From NCBI GenBank assembly GCA_963706595.1, contig OY970166.1, positions 2,144,001 through 2,208,000 on the forward strand: DNA of 64,000 bases, read 5' to 3'. The notes beneath the pieces were generated by a model, which saw only the letters and a program-made list of their open reading frames with translations, made no database searches and was not told the DNA's origin. Origin of the DNA: an uncultured cyanobacterium. GTDB lineage: Bacteria; Cyanobacteriota; Cyanobacteriia; Cyanobacteriales; Nostocaceae. The translations under genes and the position numbers were made by a program. Each line of letters begins with the position of its first letter. The stretch's first letter is position 1. Positions 45,325 to 64,000 of this stretch are shown here, piece by piece.

Positions 45325-46398
45325 TTAACTATGGGTGGTTACAGAAACAGATACGTTTTCACAGGGATGATCGTTGTCAGAATTGGTATTATTTAACCAC
45401 TGACGAGCATATTGGTCAGTTAGATAGTGATTCATAAGTTTTTCTATGGGAGCAAATAACCCATACATTAGCAATTTGTGTAAAAGTCGATGCTTAATTC
45501 CCAATGTTAGAGAATTAATAATTGGTTGTAAAAGAGTTTTTCTCCGTCGCCATCCTAAGCCTTTATATTTCTGCAAAAAATACATATCTTCTGCAATGTT
45601 CCATTTTTGTCGTAAACGGTTTAAACTTGCTAATTCCCAAGCATCACTCCATCGCAACATATAAAATTTCAAATCTGACAAATTTGGGGTAATTCCTGTT
45701 ACATAGGTGACAATACTTTCTGGTTCAAAATAGACAGTTCCACCATGTTTTCTAACTGTCATACAAAAATCAACGTGTTCTTTTGTATTAAGCATTTTTT
45801 CGTCTAAATATCCCACGTTCTCAAAAATTTCAGTTTTTGCTAACATACAGTGAAATTCACATAATTCTGTTTCTTTACGGGTGAGGGTGGGAAGCATTTT
45901 TTCCACCTTGTGTCCTTGTTTGTACATTTTCTCCCGTAAACGCTTTCTTCCTTTGATATCGGTGAAAATATGGGCTTCTCCCCCGGCAAAATGAATTTGT
46001 TCGTGGACGGGTTCATGCTGACACATTAAAGGTCCGACAATAGTTGCCTCTGTTGCTTCTGCACAGTCGAGTAATTTAGTTAACCATCCCTGAGACACAA
46101 TCACATCATTATCGACAAAGACTACATAGGGAGTAGTCACCCGTTTTAAACCCATGTTCCTTGCTACATTAGGAACAAGATAATGTTCAGTCCGAATTAA
46201 ATCAAATCCTTTTTCCTGGGCTTGACTTTTTAAATAATCTTTAATAGAAGTCGGTGAGCCACCATCAACATAAACTAATTTGAAGGGAATATCGGTATTT
46301 TGATAGATATTCTCTAGGGAAGAGATGGTAAAACTAAAACGTTCTCTAGGAACAACAACCAGAGTGACTTTTGGTTCGATTGGGGTGAATAGCTGCAT
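45325..46398 (-). CDS. GT2-like glycosyltransferase
   Basis: VYVDGGS, ARNMGL, VFVDNDV, EHVDFC. Confidence 0.8.
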   Translation of the reverse strand: MQLFTPIEPKVTLVVVPRERFSFTISSLENIYQNTDIPFKLVYVDGGSPTSIKDYLKSQAQEKGFDLIRTEHYLVPNVARNMGLKRVTTPYVVFVDNDVIVSQGWLTKLLDCAEATEATIVGPLMCQHEPVHEQIHFAGGEAHIFTDIKGRKRLREKMYKQGHKVEKMLPTLTRKETELCEFHCMLAKTEIFENVGYLDEKMLNTKEHVDFCMTVRKHGGTVYFEPESIVTYVTGITPNLSDLKFYMLRWSDAWELASLNRLRQKWNIAEDMYFLQKYKGLGWRRRKTLLQPIINSLTLGIKHRLLHKLLMYGLFAPIEKLMNHYLTDQYARQWLNNTNSDNDHPCENVSVSVTTHS

Positions 46399-46464
46399 AT
46401 TTTTTACAGACCTAATAACATCGAATTAAATTTGATTCATGAGTATTTGCACAAATCAGAAGAA

Positions 46465-47940
46465 TTAGCTCACTATTACAGGCTCTTTTTTGCCTTTAGT
46501 CATAAATTCCTCATGATAGGATCGCTCAGTATTGACTGTCCAGAGGTTATGATTTGCGCCCATGATATTCTCAGCCGCTAATAATGCAGACAACATGGAA
46601 TGGTCTTGATTGTTATAACGGTGCATCCCATTACGTCCTACTGATTGTAAGTTCTCAAAACTATCTACATAGTCTTGAATGACGTTTAAATGTTGCTGAT
46701 ATTCACCATCGTAGACAGGATAAGCTTTCTTTTCCCGAATGACAGTCCCATCTTCAATTTTCTTAATATCATCTAGTAAGCCTAAATTGACAATTTCTTT
46801 ACTGGCTAATCTAATTAAATCTTGATCTTCCATTGACCATAAATCATCCCCCTCACTACAAAAATATTCCATTCCTAAGCAAGTTTTACGGGGATCTGGA
46901 ACCATTTTCATACTCCAATTTTTAAAATTCTGAATGCGTCCAACTTTAATTTCTGGACTGTGAATATAAATCCAATTGTCTGGAAAAAGGTCTTCTTGAT
47001 TAATCACTATCGGCACAATCAGAAAATCCCGATATTTCAGACTACGGGCAGCTTTCAGAACATTTTCTGGAGGTAAGGGATCTAGACGGTGCATCAATGC
47101 CGTGATCGGCATGGTATTAATGAATTTATCTCCTGTAATTTCAAAGGTTTCATCACCTTTTTTGGCAATAATCCGAGTAATGCGTTTGTCTTTTCGTTCT
47201 ACTCTGATTACTTCCGTATTTAATAATACGGGTGAACCTTGTTCATTCAATTTTTCTTGAAACCGTTCCCACATCATCCCCGGTCCCAATATGGGATAGT
47301 CAAATTCTTTAATCAGAGTTTTGGTGTCATTACTGCCAAATAAAGCGTTAATTATTGCTTTTGTGAGAGATAATCCTTTAATTCTTTGTGCTGCCCAATC
47401 TGCGCGAATTTGAGTACAGGGAATTCCCCAAACTTTTTCGGTATAGCTTTTGAAAAAGGTTTTATATAATCGTTCTCCAAACCTGTTTATCACCCATTGT
47501 TCAAAATTTTCTTCGATGGGTAAAGGACTGGCTTTGACTTTTAAATAACTATAAATAATCAGCAAAGTTTGGATAATTCCCAAGTTCCACACTGCATTAA
47601 CTGGTTCTAAGGGATAACTAAAAAATTTTCCTTTATAGTAAATGCGAGATAAACGGGGAACTTTAATAAATTCATCTCCTAACACCTCATTCCACAAATT
47701 TTGGACTTGGGTAACTTTGGTAAAAAAGCGATGTCCTCCAATATCAAAGCGATAGCCTTTGTAGGTTTCAGTCCGAGAAATTCCCCCCACGCGATCGCCT
47801 TTTTCCAACACTACAGAATGTAAGCCATGTTTAGCTAATTGATAAGCCGCAGTTAATCCCGCAGGTCCGCCACCAATGACAACACTCAAGGGAAAGTTGT
47901 GGTGGTTATGCTCATGATTACTATTCTTATTTTGTTTCAT
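46465..47940 (-). CDS. FAD-dependent oxidoreductase (UDP-galactopyranose mutase/HemY-like fold)
   Basis: IGGGPAGLTAA, FDIGGHRFF, GRNGMHRYNNQDHSM. Confidence 0.82.
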   Translation of the reverse strand: MKQNKNSNHEHNHHNFPLSVVIGGGPAGLTAAYQLAKHGLHSVVLEKGDRVGGISRTETYKGYRFDIGGHRFFTKVTQVQNLWNEVLGDEFIKVPRLSRIYYKGKFFSYPLEPVNAVWNLGIIQTLLIIYSYLKVKASPLPIEENFEQWVINRFGERLYKTFFKSYTEKVWGIPCTQIRADWAAQRIKGLSLTKAIINALFGSNDTKTLIKEFDYPILGPGMMWERFQEKLNEQGSPVLLNTEVIRVERKDKRITRIIAKKGDETFEITGDKFINTMPITALMHRLDPLPPENVLKAARSLKYRDFLIVPIVINQEDLFPDNWIYIHSPEIKVGRIQNFKNWSMKMVPDPRKTCLGMEYFCSEGDDLWSMEDQDLIRLASKEIVNLGLLDDIKKIEDGTVIREKKAYPVYDGEYQQHLNVIQDYVDSFENLQSVGRNGMHRYNNQDHSMLSALLAAENIMGANHNLWTVNTERSYHEEFMTKGKKEPVIVS

Positions 47941-48288
47941 TATTTGATTTTTTTAATTTTCTGGAATTAATAACTCAAAGGCTAATACTCCTGACTGTTC
48001 AATGTATTCTGTTGATTAGATTGCCAGCCCTGAGTAAGCATGAAAAAGTTATCTTCTCACCATCTAAAAGTTGTTTAGTACAACTTGTCAGGTGGAAAAT
48101 TTGCGAAGCATAAATAATTGCTACATCTGCTCCTTAATAGTTCCGGTAACAAGGTTTAGCAGTGAGATTGTTAAGTGGTTTTATTTGTTGTTGGTTATTG
48201 ACTTAAATTTTACCTGTTTGATTTGTCAGTATGCATTAATATACCATAAAGTTTGGTAACTAAAATATACAGCAAAGATAAATGTTTG

Positions 48289-49266
48289 TCAAAACTTCCC
48301 AAGAATTATACTGATGATAAAAGCCGAGCCACTGTAGAAATAGTAACACCAGTGCCAAGGTATAACCTGGACACTAAATATCATGCCTCGCTTGTTGAGA
48401 AAAAAGCGGTACACTGGCAAGTTAATAATTATCAGTAATAAACTAATTATCATGCTGAAAATCAGTAGCGGCTGTAGCCAGAAACTCGCCAATATACTTA
48501 GTAATAAAGAATAAACTAGAATTACACTGACGCGACTAGACCAGCCAAGGTTTAAATCAGAAGGCATTTGTCCTTGACGCAGTATTAATTGAGTCCAGGG
48601 TAATGCGCGATCGCACACATCTGCTTTAATTAAAGAAACTATTCCCCATCGTTTCAAATGTTTAACTTGCAAAGCTTTAACTAGGCGAATTTTGTAACCT
48701 GCTGCTTTAAGTCGATAACCTAACTCAATGTCTTCCACACAAGGACGACGATAATTTTTATCAAAACCGTCCATAGTCAAGAAGATATCACGACGAATTG
48801 CGCCGCAAGCACCCCAAAACGTGAAAGCATCTTCATTGCCATTTTGATGGGTATAATGATGAAAAAGATTTTTGTATTGAGACAGAAAATTGCTTGCTCC
48901 TGGAGCATCATCATAAGAACCAATCAATGCTGCTAGACTTGCATCTTCTGTAAACGCCAATCTTACCTGATTGATGGTATCTGGAGCGATCGCCACATCA
49001 GCGTCCACAAAAAAAAGGATATCTCCTTCAGCCGCAGCTGCACCTAAATTCCTGGCTTGTGCAGGTCCGCCTTTCTCCTCCACATTAATTACCTTAGCTC
49101 CCCAGTCGGCTGCTACTTGCCCAGATTCCGTATCCCCATCCGCTACCACAATCACTTCTGTGGGCTGGGAAATAGACGCGCCCATGCTTGACAAACACTG
49201 GCGGAAACTTTCACCACCATTATGAACCGGAATGATCACCGAAATTGATAGCTGTGTTGGGTTCAT
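48289..49266 (-). CDS. GT2 glycosyltransferase with C-terminal TM segments
   Basis: [31 protein letters not shown]. Confidence 0.9.
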
Positions 49267-49289
49267 TTCTACTTTTACTAGCCTCAGTA

Positions 49290-49502
49290 GTCCCTCGTCA
49301 TTTTACGCCTTTGACGAAGTAGATATGTTTTTAGATGGGGCAAACGTCGAGGGATTAGCTAGAATGATTAAATCAAGAAGCCCAACAAGCGCAATTTATA
49401 GTTGTGAGTTTGCGTCGTCCGATGATAGAATCAGCCGAACGCAGCATTGGCGTTACTCAAGTTTTGGGAATTAAATTAAAATCATCCCATACATCTGCTT
49501 GA
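49290..49502 (+). pseudogene. Duplicated smc 3' fragment (right direct repeat)
   Basis: Encodes [17 protein letters not shown]; has a 1-nt insertion and a 21-nt deletion relative to the left copy; ends ...KLKSSHTSA*. Confidence 0.9.
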
Positions 49503-57216: not shown

Positions 57217-57666
57217 ATGGAGAACAGCCAAGTGTTTAGAGTCAATAGTCCTCAAGTTGTCTGTGAAACTATTGATGGAGAAGTGGTAGTTGTCGATCTT
57301 GAGCGGGGTTACTATTACAGTCTGCTAAAAACTGGCGCAGATTTGTGGAGTTGTATCGAGCGTCATCTTCAGCGCGATGACATAATCCAAGAAATTGGAC
57401 AAAAGTATGATGGGACTATCGCAGAGATTACTGAGGCGATTGATGAGTTTCTTGACAAATTGCAACATGAGGGATTAATTGTGGCTGATGCCACTATTAC
57501 ACCTGGGGCTATTAATGAGCAAGAATCAGTTACCAGTAGCGAAAAGCCCAAATTTGAGAAACCGATACTAGAGAAGTTTACAGATATGGAAGATTTGCTG
57601 CTGCTCGATCCGATTCATGAGGTGGATGTAGAAGCTGGATGGCCAAATGTGAAGACGGTTTCATAG
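57217..57666 (+). CDS. PqqD/RRE family protein with C-terminal peptide extension
   Basis: VVCETIDGEVVVVDLERGYYYSLLKTGADLW...FLDKLQHEGLI is a PqqD pattern; tail FEKPILEKFTDMEDLLLLDPIHEVDVEAGWPNVKTVS. Confidence 0.85.
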   Translation: MENSQVFRVNSPQVVCETIDGEVVVVDLERGYYYSLLKTGADLWSCIERHLQRDDIIQEIGQKYDGTIAEITEAIDEFLDKLQHEGLIVADATITPGAINEQESVTSSEKPKFEKPILEKFTDMEDLLLLDPIHEVDVEAGWPNVKTVS

Positions 57667-57690: not shown

Positions 57691-58737
57691 ATGAGTTTAA
57701 ACTGGAGCGATGGCGTAGCCGCCCGCCAAGGGCTTCGCCTGGCTTACTTTGATAGTTATCGATTAAAATTGTCCCACAAACAATTACTCAAAGCCACACT
57801 GTTAAAAGAGCAGGCAATGTTAACGGCTTGGCAAGATTGGCGAGATTCAGTTGATATAGAAACTTTAGATGCTAGTTCCTATTCATTGTTGCCACAACTT
57901 TACCAAAACTTATTAGCTCATAAAGTTGATGACGCTGATATGGCAAGGCTAAAGGGGATCTATCGTCGCCATTGGTATGCTAATCAATTGCAACTCAAAT
58001 CGCTGACAGCAATATTGTCTAGTTTAAAGGATATTGGCATTGAGGCGATTGTGCTGGGAGATGCCGCTTGGGGTGGGATAGGTAAAAATCAAATTGAGAA
58101 TTACCGCCCAATTTATAGCTTCCATCTCTTGCTTGATGGCAATTATTTAGAGACAGCAATCGAGCATTTGCTCTCGCTAAATTGGCATAGTGTTGATGGT
58201 AGTACCCAACAATTTAGGGAATTACGCCACAATTGTGATTCATCGCTGAATTTACGGCTTTATTTGCAAGGACATCTGTTTTGGGCAATTCCCCAAGACT
58301 ATACAGATGGGCAGGTGTGGCATTATGCAACTGCGGATTGGAGCCATGAAGCTGGTTGGCGGCTGAGTGCAACGGATCAGTTCCTGGATGGATGCGCGCG
58401 AATGTTTTTTAGACGACTAACGCCTAAATCATCGAATCCACAGATACACAGGATTGCAGATGCTTTGGTGTTAATTGCGAATCTCCCAAACAACGATTGG
58501 ATCAGGTTGATCACACAAGCACAGCGATATCAAATGATCTTGCCTGTGCGGAATATGTTGCAGCTTTTGCAGCAGTTATTTTCAGTAGAATTACCAACGT
58601 GGGTATTACCGGCTCTCTGGCAAATGCCGATCGCCAATACGGAGTGGCTAAAATATCGAGTTTTAGATGGCGATCGCCGTTCTCTGATGCGTTCAACCAT
58701 TGTGCAATCGCTACAACTGTTGACTCTTTCAAAGTAA
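57691..58737 (+). CDS. Nucleotidyltransferase-like protein (NTP_transf_5-type, degenerate)
   Basis: LLPQLYQNL, RLKGIYRRHWYANQ, GIEAIVLG; the canonical DxD is not visible. Confidence 0.6.
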   Translation: MSLNWSDGVAARQGLRLAYFDSYRLKLSHKQLLKATLLKEQAMLTAWQDWRDSVDIETLDASSYSLLPQLYQNLLAHKVDDADMARLKGIYRRHWYANQLQLKSLTAILSSLKDIGIEAIVLGDAAWGGIGKNQIENYRPIYSFHLLLDGNYLETAIEHLLSLNWHSVDGSTQQFRELRHNCDSSLNLRLYLQGHLFWAIPQDYTDGQVWHYATADWSHEAGWRLSATDQFLDGCARMFFRRLTPKSSNPQIHRIADALVLIANLPNNDWIRLITQAQRYQMILPVRNMLQLLQQLFSVELPTWVLPALWQMPIANTEWLKYRVLDGDRRSLMRSTIVQSLQLLTLSK

Positions 58738-58758: not shown

Positions 58759-59865
58759 GTGATTTTTATGTATCCTAACCCTGATCTGAGTATTGCTCAG
58801 AGCGATCGCCTTGCTTATTTCCAACTGGTATATACAGGCTTTGAAAGAGCTGCTCAGATTGCCAGTGAGGTACAGTATTATTATGCAATTGGTAAGTATA
58901 AGATATGTCTGAGGTTTGCAGGGGAAGGGTTAATTCCCCAGATTACCCCTGCATTGTCTCATCTCTCTATAGCCCCAGTTCCCCAGCCTGATCTAACTAT
59001 TTGCCTATGGGATAATACCTCAACTAAAACACAATTGCCATTATTAATTGATAGTCTATTAACTCTGATTCGACTGCATTGGACAGATTATCTCGGTCCA
59101 CGCAAAGAGATCAAAGCCTATGATGGCGATCGCATTCGCAGCAATTTTCATATTGGTCCCAACATTCTCAGCGTACTAGATCGAGAGCAAAATTTAGCTT
59201 GTTATTGGATTGACAATGCTGAAGATATTCCTTATTGGGAAAAAGGTTCACCCCTGCAAACCATCTTAAATTGGTGGACAAGCGATCATCGCCAACATCA
59301 ATATGTTCACGCAGGTGCGATCGGTAATCCTGATGGGGGTGTTTTGTTAGCGGGAAAAGGCGGATCTGGCAAATCTTCCACTGCGCTTACCTGTATCAAT
59401 AGTTCGCTGCTCTATGCCAGTGATGATTATTGTTTAGTCACCAGTGATCCTCAACCCTATGTTTATAGCCTCTACAACACCGCCAAATTAAAAGGACAAG
59501 CGGATCTAGAACGATTTCCCCATTTAGCGGATCTCGTTGATAATTGCGATCGCTTAGAGAATGAAAAAGCAATGCTATTTTTGCATCAACATCATCCTCA
59601 AAAAGTCGTACAAGGATTTCCCATCAAAGCGGTGCTAGTGCCTCAAATCACAGGGAAACTAGATACCCATATCCGTCCTATGAGTGCAGGAGCAGCCTTG
59701 CGCGCCCTAGCCCCTAGTACCATCTTTCAATTAGCTGGTAGTGGACAAACAGCATTACAAATCATGTCAAGTTTGGTCAAACAGGTTCCTTGCTATGTTT
59801 TGGAACTTGGCACAGATATGGTACAAATTCCCGATGTAATTCAACGTCTGCTATCGCAAATATAA
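58759..59865 (+). CDS. HPr kinase-like P-loop kinase
   Basis: VHAGAI, GVLLAGKGGSGKSS Walker A, SDDY. Confidence 0.82.
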   Translation: MIFMYPNPDLSIAQSDRLAYFQLVYTGFERAAQIASEVQYYYAIGKYKICLRFAGEGLIPQITPALSHLSIAPVPQPDLTICLWDNTSTKTQLPLLIDSLLTLIRLHWTDYLGPRKEIKAYDGDRIRSNFHIGPNILSVLDREQNLACYWIDNAEDIPYWEKGSPLQTILNWWTSDHRQHQYVHAGAIGNPDGGVLLAGKGGSGKSSTALTCINSSLLYASDDYCLVTSDPQPYVYSLYNTAKLKGQADLERFPHLADLVDNCDRLENEKAMLFLHQHHPQKVVQGFPIKAVLVPQITGKLDTHIRPMSAGAALRALAPSTIFQLAGSGQTALQIMSSLVKQVPCYVLELGTDMVQIPDVIQRLLSQI

Positions 59866-59896: not shown

Positions 59897-60314
59897 ATGG
59901 GATATCTCCGGCGAAAAATGATTGAGGGATTAACTCGATTTGTGCCGACAATTCTTCCTCCCCAAAGGCAATACTATAACGAAACCAATAATGATCGATG
60001 GATTTGTGAATATGTCTTTCCCAATAAACGGGATGGTTATTTCTTAGAAGTTGGAGCAGGTGCTGCTCAAAAAATATCATGCTCCTCAAGTGATTGATTA
60101 TGCTGCTTTTGATATTGAGGGCAGTGAGTTGGATGTTTTAGAAGTTTTTCCCTTTGAGCCTTATGTCTTTCTAGCTCTGAGTTTGGAATGTGATGGTTCT
60201 ATCCGTTTACCCATTTCTCAGTTATTAGAATCCAATGGCTATCGACGCGCTAAAAATCCATTTAATCGGGATAAACCTTGGGAAATGTATTGGTTACATC
60301 AGAGTGTTTACTAG
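59897..60314 (+). pseudogene. FkbM-family methyltransferase with internal deletion and frameshift
   Basis: N part ...DGYFLEVGA and C part ...VIDYAAFDIEGSE...LESNGY overlap at TTGGAGCAGG (60051-60060); the middle is missing. Confidence 0.75.
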
Positions 60315-60392: not shown

Positions 60393-61085
60393 ATGAATAA
60401 CTTACCTTTAGTAACTGTGATTATCCCTGTCTATAATTACGCTAATTATATAGCCGCAACACTTGACAGTGTATTTGCTCAAACCTATCGCCCAATTGAA
60501 GTCATTGTTGTGGATGATGGTTCAACAGATAACAGTGCGGAAATTGTGCGTGGTTATCCAGAAGTACAGTATTTTTATCAATCAAATCAAGGTGTGTCAG
60601 TTGCTCGCAATGTGGCGATCGCTGCTGCTAAAGGTGAATTTATCGCATTTTTGGATGCAGATGATCTCTGGAAACCTGAGAAACTCAGTCTTCAAATTGC
60701 CTATATGCAGGAAAATCCTGATATTGGGATCACAGGTACAAAATCGATAAATTTTTTAGAATCAGATACTCAACTTCCCCCTTGGCTAAGAGATAAGCCC
60801 CATTGGGAAGAGGTGAGAGAGATCCTTCCCAGCACAATCGTGGTTCACAAATCTGTTTTTAGTCAAATCGGGGTATTCTCTCCTGATTATCGTGCCAGCG
60901 AGGATACAGAATGGCAATGGCGAGCCAAAGATGCAAATATATCCATCTTTAATATCAATGAAATCCTGACATTAAGACGATTTCAGGGTTCTAATCTATC
61001 GTGGGAGATGAAAGTAACTCAGAAATCTCGGATGTTGAGAATTATCAAGGAATCCATCGCTCGTAAATCGACCCAAGCTCGATGA
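60393..61085 (+). CDS. GT2 glycosyltransferase (tandem copy 1)
   Basis: VIIPVYN, VVDDGSTD, FLDADD, SEDTEW. Confidence 0.92.
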   Translation: MNNLPLVTVIIPVYNYANYIAATLDSVFAQTYRPIEVIVVDDGSTDNSAEIVRGYPEVQYFYQSNQGVSVARNVAIAAAKGEFIAFLDADDLWKPEKLSLQIAYMQENPDIGITGTKSINFLESDTQLPPWLRDKPHWEEVREILPSTIVVHKSVFSQIGVFSPDYRASEDTEWQWRAKDANISIFNINEILTLRRFQGSNLSWEMKVTQKSRMLRIIKESIARKSTQAR

Positions 61086-61179: not shown

Positions 61180-61872
61180 ATGAATAATTTACCTTTAGTG
61201 ACCGTTGTTATCCCTGTTTATAACTCTGCTAAGTTTTTGGCAGCAGCACTTGACAGTGTATTTGCTCAAACCTATCGCCCAATCGAAGTCATTGTTGTGG
61301 ATGATGGTTCAACAGATAACAGTGCGGAAATTGTGCGTGATTATCCAAAAGTACAGTATTTTTATCAATCAAATCAAGGTGTGTCAGTTGCTCGCAATGT
61401 GGCGATCGCTGCTGCAAAGGGTGAATTTATCGCATTTTTGGATGCAGATGATCTTTGGAAACCTGAGAAACTCAGTCTTCAGATTGCCTATATGCTGGAA
61501 AATCCTGATATTGGGATCACAGGTACAAAGGCGATAAATTTCTTAGAGTCAGATACTCAACTTCCCCCTTGGCTGAGAGATGATCCCAATTGGGAAGAGG
61601 AAAAAGTGATGATTCCTAGCACAATGGTGGTTCACAAATCTGTTTTTAGTCAAGTTGGAGATTTTTCTCCTGATTATCGTGCCAGCCAGGATACAGAATG
61701 GTTATGGCGAGCCAAAGATGCAAAGATCCCCATGTTTAATATCAATGAAATTCTGACATTAAGACGATTTCACGGCTCTAATGTATCATGGCTGATGGCA
61801 GGAACTCACAAATCTCGGATGTTGAGAATTATCAAGGACTCCATCGCTCGTCAATCGCAGCAATCTCGATGA
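61180..61872 (+). CDS. GT2 glycosyltransferase (tandem copy 2)
   Basis: Same 230-aa length and largely identical to copy 1; 787-bp period. Confidence 0.92.
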   Translation: MNNLPLVTVVIPVYNSAKFLAAALDSVFAQTYRPIEVIVVDDGSTDNSAEIVRDYPKVQYFYQSNQGVSVARNVAIAAAKGEFIAFLDADDLWKPEKLSLQIAYMLENPDIGITGTKAINFLESDTQLPPWLRDDPNWEEEKVMIPSTMVVHKSVFSQVGDFSPDYRASQDTEWLWRAKDAKIPMFNINEILTLRRFHGSNVSWLMAGTHKSRMLRIIKDSIARQSQQSR

Positions 61873-61899: not shown

Positions 61900-62207
61900 T
61901 TAAACATCTATGAGCAGATTTTCGGCATTATCTTCAGGTTCGTATCCTAACAGTTTTTGGGCATTGCTGATATCCCAATAGCGGCGCGTGTTGCCAGAAA
62001 CTCCATAAAAAATTTGAAAACCAAGATTGTCATGCTCTAGCGATCGCCTAACTATTTGTGCTAAATCTCTAGGGCTACACCAATTTGATAATATCCGATC
62101 ATTGGGAGCATAAACTTTCGGTTCGGTTTTAAACCAGCCAATCCGCAAACAGATCACCGTCATCCCATAGCGATCGCCAAAATATTGTCCTAAAGCTTCA
62201 CCTAAAA
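61900..62207 (-). pseudogene. C-terminal remnant of an NAD-dependent epimerase/uronate dehydrogenase-like protein
   Basis: LGEALGQYFGDRYGMTVICLRIG...SPRDL...YGVSGN...LGYEPED; no Rossmann N-terminus. Confidence 0.75.
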
Positions 62208-62903
62208 TTATTGGTTTAAAGCTCTGTGTTTTGCACGTTCTCGATCTAGCTTGGCTTTGATGATGTGCAGTCTTTGATTGGCATATTGACGTTCTGTAAT
62301 TCCACTATTGCTTTCATGTAGTCGGCGGTGATATACCACATCTGGAATTGTAATTTGTTGCAGTTGATGTTCTATTGCCCAAATATACCAACTTATATCA
62401 ATACCTGTGTTGAGATTGGTGTCAAAGTTGCCCACTCTCAAAAAAGCCGATCGCTTGATCAACATAGCACTAGATATATGCGCCGCAACTGGTTTTTCTG
62501 GACAGCGAATCCTGTTTCTGAAGTTTTCATCTAGTTCTGGGCTATAAAAATTTTGAGCATAGCCAAAGACTGCTTCTATATCTGGGTTAGTATCAAAAGC
62601 CGCCATTTGTTTTGCTAGTTTGTCCTGAACCCAAATATCATCAGAATCGAGAAAGGCGAGAAATTCACCATTAGCTACTGCAATTCCGGCATTTCTAGCA
62701 GCACTGATGCCGCCATTGGTTTGATAGTGATATTTCAGGGGGTAGCTTTGGGCAATTTCGCCACTGCGATCGCTCGATCCATCGTCAATTACAATCAACT
62801 CGATATTGGGATGGGTTTGCTCTAAAACACTTTCAATAGCTTCGGCTAAATAGCGCTCTCGATTATAGCAGGGAATAATAACACTAACTAAAGGTAAATT
62901 CAT
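62208..62903 (-). CDS. GT2 glycosyltransferase
   Basis: SVIIPCYN, VIDDGSSD, FLDSDD. Confidence 0.92.
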   Translation of the reverse strand: MNLPLVSVIIPCYNRERYLAEAIESVLEQTHPNIELIVIDDGSSDRSGEIAQSYPLKYHYQTNGGISAARNAGIAVANGEFLAFLDSDDIWVQDKLAKQMAAFDTNPDIEAVFGYAQNFYSPELDENFRNRIRCPEKPVAAHISSAMLIKRSAFLRVGNFDTNLNTGIDISWYIWAIEHQLQQITIPDVVYHRRLHESNSGITERQYANQRLHIIKAKLDRERAKHRALNQ

Positions 62904-64000
62904 CAGATTGATTTATATACTTCACTATTACAAAAACTATCTAGAAAATAATTTGCTGATAGTTTATCACGAGTTTCGCAGGACTTGAGATATTCATGAG
63001 TTTCTAAAATGAGTGCCGTATCCAATGCTTTTGCTGCGGCTTCTTTTAGAGTATGGAAATACATCGGATAGTCTTCGCCTAGATATTCTTTCACCGCCGG
63101 AATCGGATTAACTAGCAGTGGTGTCGCACGGGCAATACATTCAATGATTGCATTATTTACACCAGAGTCATACAAATTCACAAAGGCGATATTCATCGAG
63201 AGCAGATCATCATAGGCATCGTCGGGAATATGTTCAATAACAGTTGTATTCTCAACATAAGCTGGATCAACTTGAATTTTATAAATCCTCCCTTCAATTT
63301 TCATTAGTTGATCTAATATTTTTTCTGCTGAGTCAAACAAAAAACCTAATCTGACTTTTTCGTAACCAAGACAGTTACCTTTAGCTAGAGGTAATTGATA
63401 AATCGAATGTAACTTCCGCAACCACCAGCCAATCTGCACCACTTTTTTCTGAGGATTGGCGAGAAATTGATTAAAATCAAATTGTTTTTCGGGAATCTCC
63501 GTGGGATGGATTAATACTGAAACTGGTTTGCCTGTTTCTTTCCTCAGCCAATCGCCATAATAGTGAGATAGTGCAAACAATCCCACGCAGTGAGGCAAAC
63601 TATCTTGCCAAATTTGCTTCTCAAATAGTTTTTGGGGCGATCTGTGATAATGGAACCAGATGGGCATCCTGTGGGGGTTGTGCATAAATCCCACCCAAGG
63701 GGTTTTATAAGGTACGATACCCTTTTCTTCTGAGTCCGCTAAACTCTGGAAAACTCCATCAGCCCGCATTTTTGCTAATATCCGGGGCGATCTCCTACCA
63801 AAGTGATGATGTTGAAAAAGAAATTGATTTTCTAGGAAGCCATCAAACAAAACACCTTGGGGATTGTGTAAAGAACTTAGTGCTTGAATTGCAAAATTCC
63901 AACCACTGCGATGAGGAGCAAAAACTCTTTGTTGTCCGAGATTAATTTTTCCTGTGGCTATACCTTGTAGTTTTTCAGTAGAAAAATAAAGATTTTCTGC
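62903..64000 (-). CDS. Hypothetical protein with GT-B-like C-terminal part (5' end outside the window)
   Basis: Frame is open to 64000 (AENLYF...HRSGWNFAIQ...); VQIGWWLRK, NNAIIECIARATPLLVN. Confidence 0.7.
   Translation of the reverse strand, partial: AENLYFSTEKLQGIATGKINLGQQRVFAPHRSGWNFAIQALSSLHNPQGVLFDGFLENQFLFQHHHFGRRSPRILAKMRADGVFQSLADSEEKGIVPYKTPWVGFMHNPHRMPIWFHYHRSPQKLFEKQIWQDSLPHCVGLFALSHYYGDWLRKETGKPVSVLIHPTEIPEKQFDFNQFLANPQKKVVQIGWWLRKLHSIYQLPLAKGNCLGYEKVRLGFLFDSAEKILDQLMKIEGRIYKIQVDPAYVENTTVIEHIPDDAYDDLLSMNIAFVNLYDSGVNNAIIECIARATPLLVNPIPAVKEYLGEDYPMYFHTLKEAAAKALDTALILETHEYLKSCETRDKLSANYFLDSFCNSEVYKSI

Follow-up and report, generated by a model that had tools for sequence, protein, structure and literature searches.

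The window analysed here, a stretch of 64,000 nucleotides from the genome of an uncultured cyanobacterium of the Nostocaceae, contains near its downstream end a small ORF (57217–57666) that encodes an RRE resembling the lasso B1 proteins, a linker and a tail of the form FEKPIL...DPIH...GWP...S. This ORF is followed by genes for a nucleotidyltransferase-like protein, an HprK-like kinase and several glycosyltransferases (Table 1). The tail, FEKPILEKFTDMEDLLLLDPIHEVDVEAGWPNVKTVS, is encoded at 57553–57663 of the forward strand and ends at the stop codon TAG (57664–57666). The ATG at 57217, from which the homologues align, is the likely start and gives a protein of 149 aa, an alternative ATG upstream (57175) giving 163 aa. 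The N-terminal part was assigned to PqqD/RRE family PF05402 (54.2 bits against a cut-off of 23.4, E 1.9e-14), and in its predicted model three strands and three helices make up a wHTH fold, whose nearest match in Foldseek was TbiB1, a lasso B1 protein (E 6e-5, target TM 0.89–0.91). The match to the NCBIfam model lasso_PqqD (NF033536; 50.5 bits) was weak and far under the curated cut-off of 80; the RRE stayed below cut-off with all NCBIfam lasso and PQQ models, and the tail was covered by no model. A profile of the conserved arm found no relative in the PDB (best E 1.2), and a search of the ESM Atlas returned PqqD clusters only. No reads over the gene were present in the small shares of two RNA runs that were inspected, which are uninformative about its expression.

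Table 1. Features of the RRE-tail gene and of the cassette that follows it (window coordinates)
Feature	Position	Strand	Evidence or remark
RRE domain, PqqD-like, lasso B1-type, residues 1–92	57217..57492	+	PF05402, model, Foldseek TbiB1
Variable linker, ~20 residues	57493..57552	+	Entropy 3.4–3.9 bits; pLDDT 56 for residues 101–110
Leader-like strand F113-x-x-P116-x-L118-x-K-F121, predicted groove filler	57553..57579	+	Model, conservation, co-variation, groove residues from the accessible text of PMC13381572
Conserved arm T122-D123-M-E-D-L-L-L-L-D131-P-I-H134-E-V-D-x-x-x-G-W142-P, with leading candidate site Asp131 (57607)	57580..57645	+	Model, conservation
NVKTVS and stop, non-conserved end	57646..57666	+	Terminal Ser (57661) not a family feature
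NTP_transf_5 protein	57691..58737	+	PF14907; metal-binding motif without its Lys and its two Asp
HprK/PEPCK-like kinase	58759..59865	+	His, GxGGSGKS and DD motifs intact
FkbM-type methyltransferase, two frames, accessory	59897..60314	+	Intact 238-aa form in locus L002
GT2 glycosyltransferase, cassette subfamily in 38/80 loci	60393..61085	+	
GT2 glycosyltransferase, paralogue of the 60393..61085 gene	61180..61872	+	
GT2 glycosyltransferase, cassette subfamily in 54/80 loci	62208..62903	-	
TPR and weak glycosyltransferase-like protein	62903..64000	-	Gene start at 64324, beyond the window

The NTP_transf_5 protein is predicted from its sequence to be inactive in this lineage. Its four closest relatives likewise lack the Lys and the DxD motif, and the D134A/D136A variant of PsmN is described as inactive in the accessible text of PMC6993621. 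Within the subfamily of this protein both Lys and DxD were kept in 28 of 58 members, and a second subfamily keeps DxD in 17 of 17. The His, Walker A and DD motifs of the kinase were invariant in 48 kinases. The kinase was related to HPr kinase with E 2.9e-6, and a fused homologue had a PEPCK fold (E 9e-11); the protein itself fell under the Pfam and NCBIfam cut-offs, with a weak match to the HprK-related kinase A of the HPr-rel-A system (TIGR04352; 32.7 bits against a curated 200). The split FkbM gene and a fragment of an epimerase-like gene at 61900–62163, which is whole (253 aa) in a genome of the same genus (G318), are due either to decay or to assembly errors. An NTP_transf_5-like gene with intact motifs (64296–65513) lies outside the window, just upstream of the TPR gene, and no exporter was seen beside the window copy of the cassette. 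Two GT2-like genes and a FAD-dependent oxidoreductase-like gene, as read from the sequence, occupy 45325–49266 on the reverse strand, 8–12 kb upstream, and the short ORF at 49232–49474, which by its sequence resembles the C-terminal end of an SMC protein, is apparently a fragment.

Homologues of the RRE-tail protein were numerous. At E ≤ 1e-30 the family profile retrieved 1000 clusters from a library clustered at 50 % identity; some of them may be relatives that lack the exact tail, and the best 150 of the 1000 were inspected. Among the matches listed, the closest named homologues came from filamentous cyanobacteria, and LDPIH was present in 118 of 120, the remaining two having IDPIH or being truncated. 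In an alignment of 356 RRE units the leader columns held Phe113 in 329 of 349 (Tyr in 16) and Pro116 in 340 of 349. The arm was still closer to invariance (D123 341/345, D131 335/338, P132 338/338, H134 335/335, G141 334/335, W142 334/334), with D137 kept in 291 of 335. Beyond the leader strand the arm was thus better conserved than the RRE itself. The linker (entropy 3.5–3.8 bits, against near-invariant tail columns) and the end after GWP varied freely. Judged from these alignments, the conservation of the tail is not a matter of chance. Conservation of FxxPxL, DPIH and GWP had been expected in the preliminary description together with that of a terminal Ser or Thr; the three motifs bore this out and the last residue did not, being Ser in 19, Thr in 20, Ala in 76 and Lys in 41 of 332 full-length homologues, and no Ser or Thr was found from LDPIH to the C-terminal end in 60 of the 332. 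Position 122 was Ser or Thr in 298 of 334 tails of the DPIH type, and Asp, Ala, Glu, Arg or others in 36.

The gene neighbourhoods were compared in 80 loci, kept out of 215 found, which by their record titles span more than 15 phyla. The kinase was present in 69, NTP_transf_5 in 64, GT2 enzymes in 64 (three subfamilies, in 54, 43 and 38 loci), a full-length ABC exporter in 27 and Wzm in six. For the 47 loci covered over at least 5 kb to either side, the kinase lay within 10 kb in 44, GT2 in 45, the nucleotidyltransferase in 40 and all three in 39, with an ABC exporter in 16 and Wzm in three. When 401 genomes of the phylum were searched, the tail profile matched 28 genomes, one of them spuriously (G075, locus L112; E 0.006, without an RRE), and the kinase profile matched exactly the other 27; all 29 true tail matches lay behind an RRE. 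The homologue query had included the tail and so favoured conserved tails, and the kinase-profile search provides an independent check, since all 27 genomes that it found also hold the tail. Within the genomes searched, the RRE-tail protein has this kinase as its obligate partner.

The same partners were also joined in single proteins. In P0128, P0135, P0170, P0269, P0270 and P0274 the RRE and tail precede the kinase, and in P0277–P0279 they stand behind a glycosyltransferase-like domain; in the kinase fusions the arm is internal, with 250–681 further residues behind it. Fusions of the kinase to GT2 occurred in 10 of the 80 loci. P0272 pairs an RRE with the rear half of a kinase and seems to be a deletion or a chimera, and mis-called starts or read-through may lie behind P0271, P0273, P0275, P0276 and P0280; these six were left out of the fusion count. 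The RRE-tail family is real, widespread and uncharacterised.

The tail opens with the (Y/W/F)xxPxL motif of lasso leaders, set behind a B1-type RRE into which it is predicted to dock, and the proposal that FEKPIL acts as a leader in cis, in the groove of its own RRE, is well supported by models and alignments. In the model a lone strand was formed at 118–121, with pLDDT about 90 in two models and 91 for residues 111–120; occupancy of the groove by F113, P116 and L118 is predicted from this arrangement. The remainder of the tail was modelled as a short helix followed by coil of low confidence (pLDDT 66, 52 and 46 for its successive parts). Co-variation points the same way. In LppB, Asp70, four residues before Phe74, is described as hydrogen-bonding the leader Tyr (PMC13381572, accessible text). 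The equivalent here is Ala74 (57436), found with a leader Phe, and Asp stands at this position in Tyr-binding RREs. Among 385 units, 28 of which had another or an unassignable leader residue, Asp was found with 10 of 18 leader Tyr, one of 337 Phe and one of two Trp. This was the RRE column best associated with the leader residue (Fisher 8e-10, the next 8e-5, with related sequences not independent), and in an RRE-only tree, made from every Tyr or Asp unit plus 110 randomly picked Phe units, the tips with Tyr and Asp fell into seven separate clades. Both P0128 and P0177 combine a first unit with Tyr and Asp and a second with Phe and Ala. The counter-evidence is that Asp was missing in eight of the 18 Tyr units. 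In the tandem repeats inspected, each RRE was followed by an aromatic-led strand, mostly F/Y/WxxPxL, with a single full arm per protein; P0121, P0122, P0124, P0138, P0140, P0142 and P0219 have two or three RRE units and the full arm on the last only.

A weak tail match (L114) led to a second subfamily, in which the tail ends Y-x-x-P-x-L-N-I-Y-R-D-M-G-D-L-L-A-L-D-P-P-x-P-G-L-x-D-x-P-W. The leader residue of these DPP tails was Tyr in 72 of 74 parsed tails, a set in which the rows L148 and L186 are mis-parsed, and the RRE Asp was present in 54 of 65 assignable cases. Position 122 was Arg in 69 of the 74 and Ser or Thr in two of 71, and His was absent from DPP tails. In a third type, family f34 from small genomes, the leader Pro is lost and position 122 is mostly Asn, with D-A-Q-E-L-L-L-A-D-P-I-H-E-V...GW retained. 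The f34 loci L100–L111 and L117:9039-10550 have kinases with a weak RRE-like C-terminal match and tails with a charged extension. All tail types have in common an aromatic residue at 121, D123, D/E126, L127–L128, D131 and P132, and a Trp 10 or 11 residues further on. No hydroxyl residue or His was universal across the types compared, and the polar residues shared by DPIH and DPP tails (Asp123, Asp/Glu126 and Asp131) are all acidic. The terminal Ser, Thr122 and His134, not being conserved across the homologues and the DPP subfamily, were therefore rejected as universal acceptors. The kinases of DPP loci formed one clade (23 tips, support 0.997), and the tail types were separated by two changes on the GT2 tree and five on the nucleotidyltransferase tree; co-inheritance and different source collections could explain the split of the kinases. 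The genome G125 holds a DPP-type cassette with GT4 enzymes (L115:6394-14232, contig C24) as well as one of the DPIH type, with a separate kinase for each, and offers a natural specificity control.

That the tail might only aid folding, the leader strand stabilizing the RRE and the rest being vestigial, is very improbable: LppB is described as insoluble without leader (PMC13381572, accessible text), and extra RRE repeats retain the strand alone, but the arm outdoes the RRE in conservation and survives the loss of the leader Pro in f34.

The preliminary description had read the protein as an uncleaved fusion of an RRE with a lasso precursor, whose core LDPIHEVDVEAGWPNVKTVS would be phosphorylated on the terminal Ser and closed through Asp at position 8. 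Its reading of the letters was accurate: lasso spacing places the core start at Leu130 and Asp137 at position 8, and the canonical Gly and Thr(-2) are missing, Thr122 and Leu128 standing in their places. Paeninodin-type kinases do modify a terminal Ser. A terminal Ser was, as given above, confined to 19 of 332 homologues, 60 had no Ser or Thr at all in the core, the arm has hundreds of residues behind it in the fusions, and Asp137 is absent from the DPP subfamily. The genome has no cyclase, its only match to PF00733 (Asn_synthase) being a weak one to an ORF that we take, from its sequence, to be QueC-like, and no macrolactam cyclase was detected when 303 unlabelled neighbour ORFs were searched through 247 representatives (E ≤ 1e-12). 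A B2 gene occurred in one of the 80 loci, 10 kb off and with its own RRE; elsewhere B2 was found in six of 26 other tail-bearing genomes, never on the contig of the tail. The reading of a lasso core with a terminal Ser acceptor is largely refuted, and a lasso fusion is now hardly credible.

Cleavage of the tail by another route was also looked for. None of the same 247 representatives belonged to a signal-peptidase family (E ≤ 1e-12), the only peptidases being the unrelated M24, S41 and Rce1, once each. No recurring free precursor was seen by eye in the 80 loci, where a leader-like motif occurred in 60 of 1547 intergenic short ORFs. The same listing did show a canonical Y-x-x-P-x-L...G...LT precursor at the other RRE locus of the genome. 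With no peptidase in the cassette and the tail internal in fusions, the protein does look uncleaved, as had been suggested.

That other locus (G000:C1:3282180-3289938, reverse strand, outside the window; L082 and L084) encodes a 96-aa RRE, a GT4-like enzyme, an HprK-like kinase, a GT2 enzyme, a B2 peptidase, a split ABC exporter and a nucleotidyltransferase. Its precursor of 40 aa has the canonical leader YSQPEL...G...LT and a core without Asp or Glu; with no cyclase in the genome, the locus may encode a phosphopeptide that stays linear and is cut by B2, or it may be what remains of a lasso cluster.

The nearest described systems are the clusters for linear polyphosphorylated peptides (LPP) of Bacillota (lppAKBSDN; Popov et al. 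2026, PMC13381572) and the pseudomycoidin and paeninodin clusters (PMC6993621), which are compared here as they appear in the accessible text of these papers. LPP clusters resemble the present cassette in their discrete lasso-type RRE, HprK-like kinase, NTP transferase, MsbA-like exporter, polysaccharide-locus context and aromatic-x-x-Pro leader motif and in having no cyclase, and the cassette carries the LPP gene set of RRE, HprK-like kinase, NTP transferase and exporter without a cyclase. What sets the LPP clusters apart is that the precursor has a gene of its own, that an SpI-like peptidase for the leader is encoded, that the acceptor Ser is conserved and that the cores vary; neither the SpI-like peptidase nor a separate YxxPxVLxHQxIxFETxxS precursor was found in the 80 loci. 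In the RRE-tail cassette, in contrast, the RRE carries leader and arm on the same chain and is accompanied by no peptidase; the arm hardly varies, no hydroxyl is conserved, the three GT2 subfamilies belong to the core and many phyla are represented. With pseudomycoidin and paeninodin (PsmK, PsmN) the cassette shares the HprK-like kinase, the PF14907 nucleotidyltransferase and the B1-type RRE fold, but it has no macrolactam cyclase, B2, Gly/Thr-2 signature or conserved terminal Ser. The pearlin scaffold peptides (TglA and BhaA with PEARLs; PMC11962472, accessible text) offer an analogy only: a carboxylate is phosphorylated with ATP on a ribosomal peptide, but it is the C-terminal carboxylate, the site is ATP-grasp-like, the reaction is tRNA-dependent, the peptide is free and homology is limited to the RRE fold. 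The cassette works like the LPP and pseudomycoidin tailoring modules but belongs to neither class.

A fused LPP-like precursor, phosphorylated and glycosylated at Thr/Ser122 (or His134) and freed by a housekeeping protease, would account for a set of RRE, HprK-like kinase, nucleotidyltransferase and ABC exporter that is the same as in the LPP clusters described in the accessible text, and for the frequencies of Ser/Thr122 (298/334) and His134 (335/335) in DPIH tails. Against it, position 122 is not Ser or Thr in 36 of 334 DPIH tails and is Arg in 69 of 74 DPP tails, which have no His; in the model residue 122 precedes the predicted helix, where it may serve as an N-cap. The cassette has neither a signal-peptidase-like nor a B2 gene, and internal arms would need two cuts. 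This reading is improbable for the family as a whole, and can hold for part of it only.

We tentatively favour, with a probability of about 45 %, a role of the RRE-tail protein as an uncleaved, reusable acceptor arm in glycan building, with Asp131 as the leading site. The leader-like strand would stay bound in the groove of its own RRE, the protein remaining uncut, and the D-M-x-D-L-L-x-L-D-P...W arm would be held out to the partner kinase and covalently modified, presumably with phosphate first and sugars next. Because no hydroxyl or His is common to both subfamilies, the site would be a carboxylate, Asp131 before Asp123. The nucleotidyltransferase and GT2 enzymes might then extend the phosphate as in pseudomycoidin, where a pair of the PsmK/PsmN type gives phosphate and then hexose on the peptide (PMC6993621, accessible text), and the pathway would end in a glycan at the surface, not in a secreted peptide. 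The one-to-one co-occurrence of tail and kinase in 27 of 401 genomes argues for such an arm, as do the fusions to kinase and glycosyltransferase-like domains, the lack of any other peptide substrate in sight, the flexibility and single copy of the arm, and the Wzm/Wzt-type and full-length ABC exporters of the loci. In related systems, as far as the accessible text describes them, RREs present peptides to kinases of this class (LppK, PsmK). Asp131 lies 18 residues past the leader aromatic, which is where LPP precursors have their phosphorylated Ser3 (consensus YxxPxVLxHQxIxFETxxS; PMC13381572, accessible text). This match is weak, with about three invariant acidic positions in an arm of 30 residues, and a beta-bulge in LppA could shift it by one. 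According to the same source LppK can phosphorylate a phosphate already in place, which makes an anionic oxygen acceptable to that kinase, and PEARLs, of a different fold, activate a peptide carboxylate by phosphorylation (PMC11962472, accessible text).

Several observations speak against an acceptor arm. In the model of the fusion P0270 (mean pLDDT 90.5) residues 126–143 of the arm stayed below 50, with no ordered kinase pose; the characterized kinases of the class use Ser, and in the text accessible LppK refuses Thr and Tyr and none is described with Asp. An arm that hardly varies and has a hydrophobic core would suit a binding motif just as well, and the adjacent nucleotidyltransferase looks inactive here.

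A close rival, if the less likely of the two, is that the protein acts without covalent change as an activator or scaffold: leader and arm would mimic a bound precursor and either activate the kinase and glycosyltransferases or bring them together, with Asp131 as pseudo-substrate or phospho-mimic, and the kinase would phosphorylate some other protein, a sugar or a lipid-linked glycan. This would suit the want of a conserved hydroxyl (Ser/Thr122 in 298/334 DPIH against 2/71 DPP tails) and a hydrophobic arm that is near invariant over many phyla, unlike the variable LPP cores, and also the rejection of even Thr and Tyr by LppK (PMC13381572, accessible text for both points). The internal position of the arm in fusions, the kinase-GT2 fusions and the polysaccharide-type exporters are likewise in keeping with it. 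A tight interface motif might, however, be expected to order on its partner, which the arm did not do in the P0270 model; no alternative substrate was identified, and the substrates described for the relatives LppK and PsmK in the text accessible are precursor peptides of the RRE type.

Bearing on both readings is a second cassette of the genome (G000:C1:3657860-3668428, outside the window), with a kinase 54 % identical to that of the window, a nucleotidyltransferase, Wzm/Wzt, a sulfotransferase-like protein and GT2. Its gene order matches that of L068, L072 and L080, which do carry the RRE-tail gene, and this gene is absent from the second cassette (3657860–3668428). Since the kinase stands there without it, the RRE-tail protein either acts in trans for the second cassette or is dispensable. 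A kinase without an arm beside it counts against the acceptor arm, and a single RRE-tail gene for two kinase cassettes fits an activator.

No description of this family, or of an RRE fused to its own leader, was found in the accessible main text of the literature searched. New here are the association of leader Tyr with the RRE Asp, the finding that tail and kinase occur in exactly the same genomes of those searched, the DPP subfamily, and the rejection of Ser, Thr and His as acceptors common to the whole family. RRE-guided genome mining seeks separate short precursors, so a family with its own leader would be passed over. According to the accessible text of PMC12710340, 21 % of PF05402 proteins exceed the size of a discrete RRE without other annotation, and the RRE-tail family may be among them.

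A more specific form of the acceptor reading is unlikely: a RiPP precursor, taken over by the RRE that binds it, would have become a protein carrier of glycan, on which the kinase makes an aspartyl (poly)phosphate at Asp131 and the nucleotidyltransferase and glycosyltransferases add a sugar chain. The labile link would hand the glycan on for export and the protein would be reused. If true, such a carrier would be a protein counterpart of the lipid-phosphate carrier in more than 15 bacterial phyla. A separate idea considered for the tail is Asp-Pro self-cleavage with transfer to a glycan, by analogy with the motifs of FrpC, mucin GDPH and inter-alpha-inhibitor.

Paeninodin and LPP clusters have been noted in polysaccharide loci, where their role was stated to be unknown (PMC13381572, accessible text). 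The RRE-tail family ties RiPP-type phospho-glycosylation enzymes to such loci. Should either reading hold, whether a carrier arm linked through Asp or a naturally self-activated RiPP kinase with a substrate other than a peptide, the chemistry would be new.
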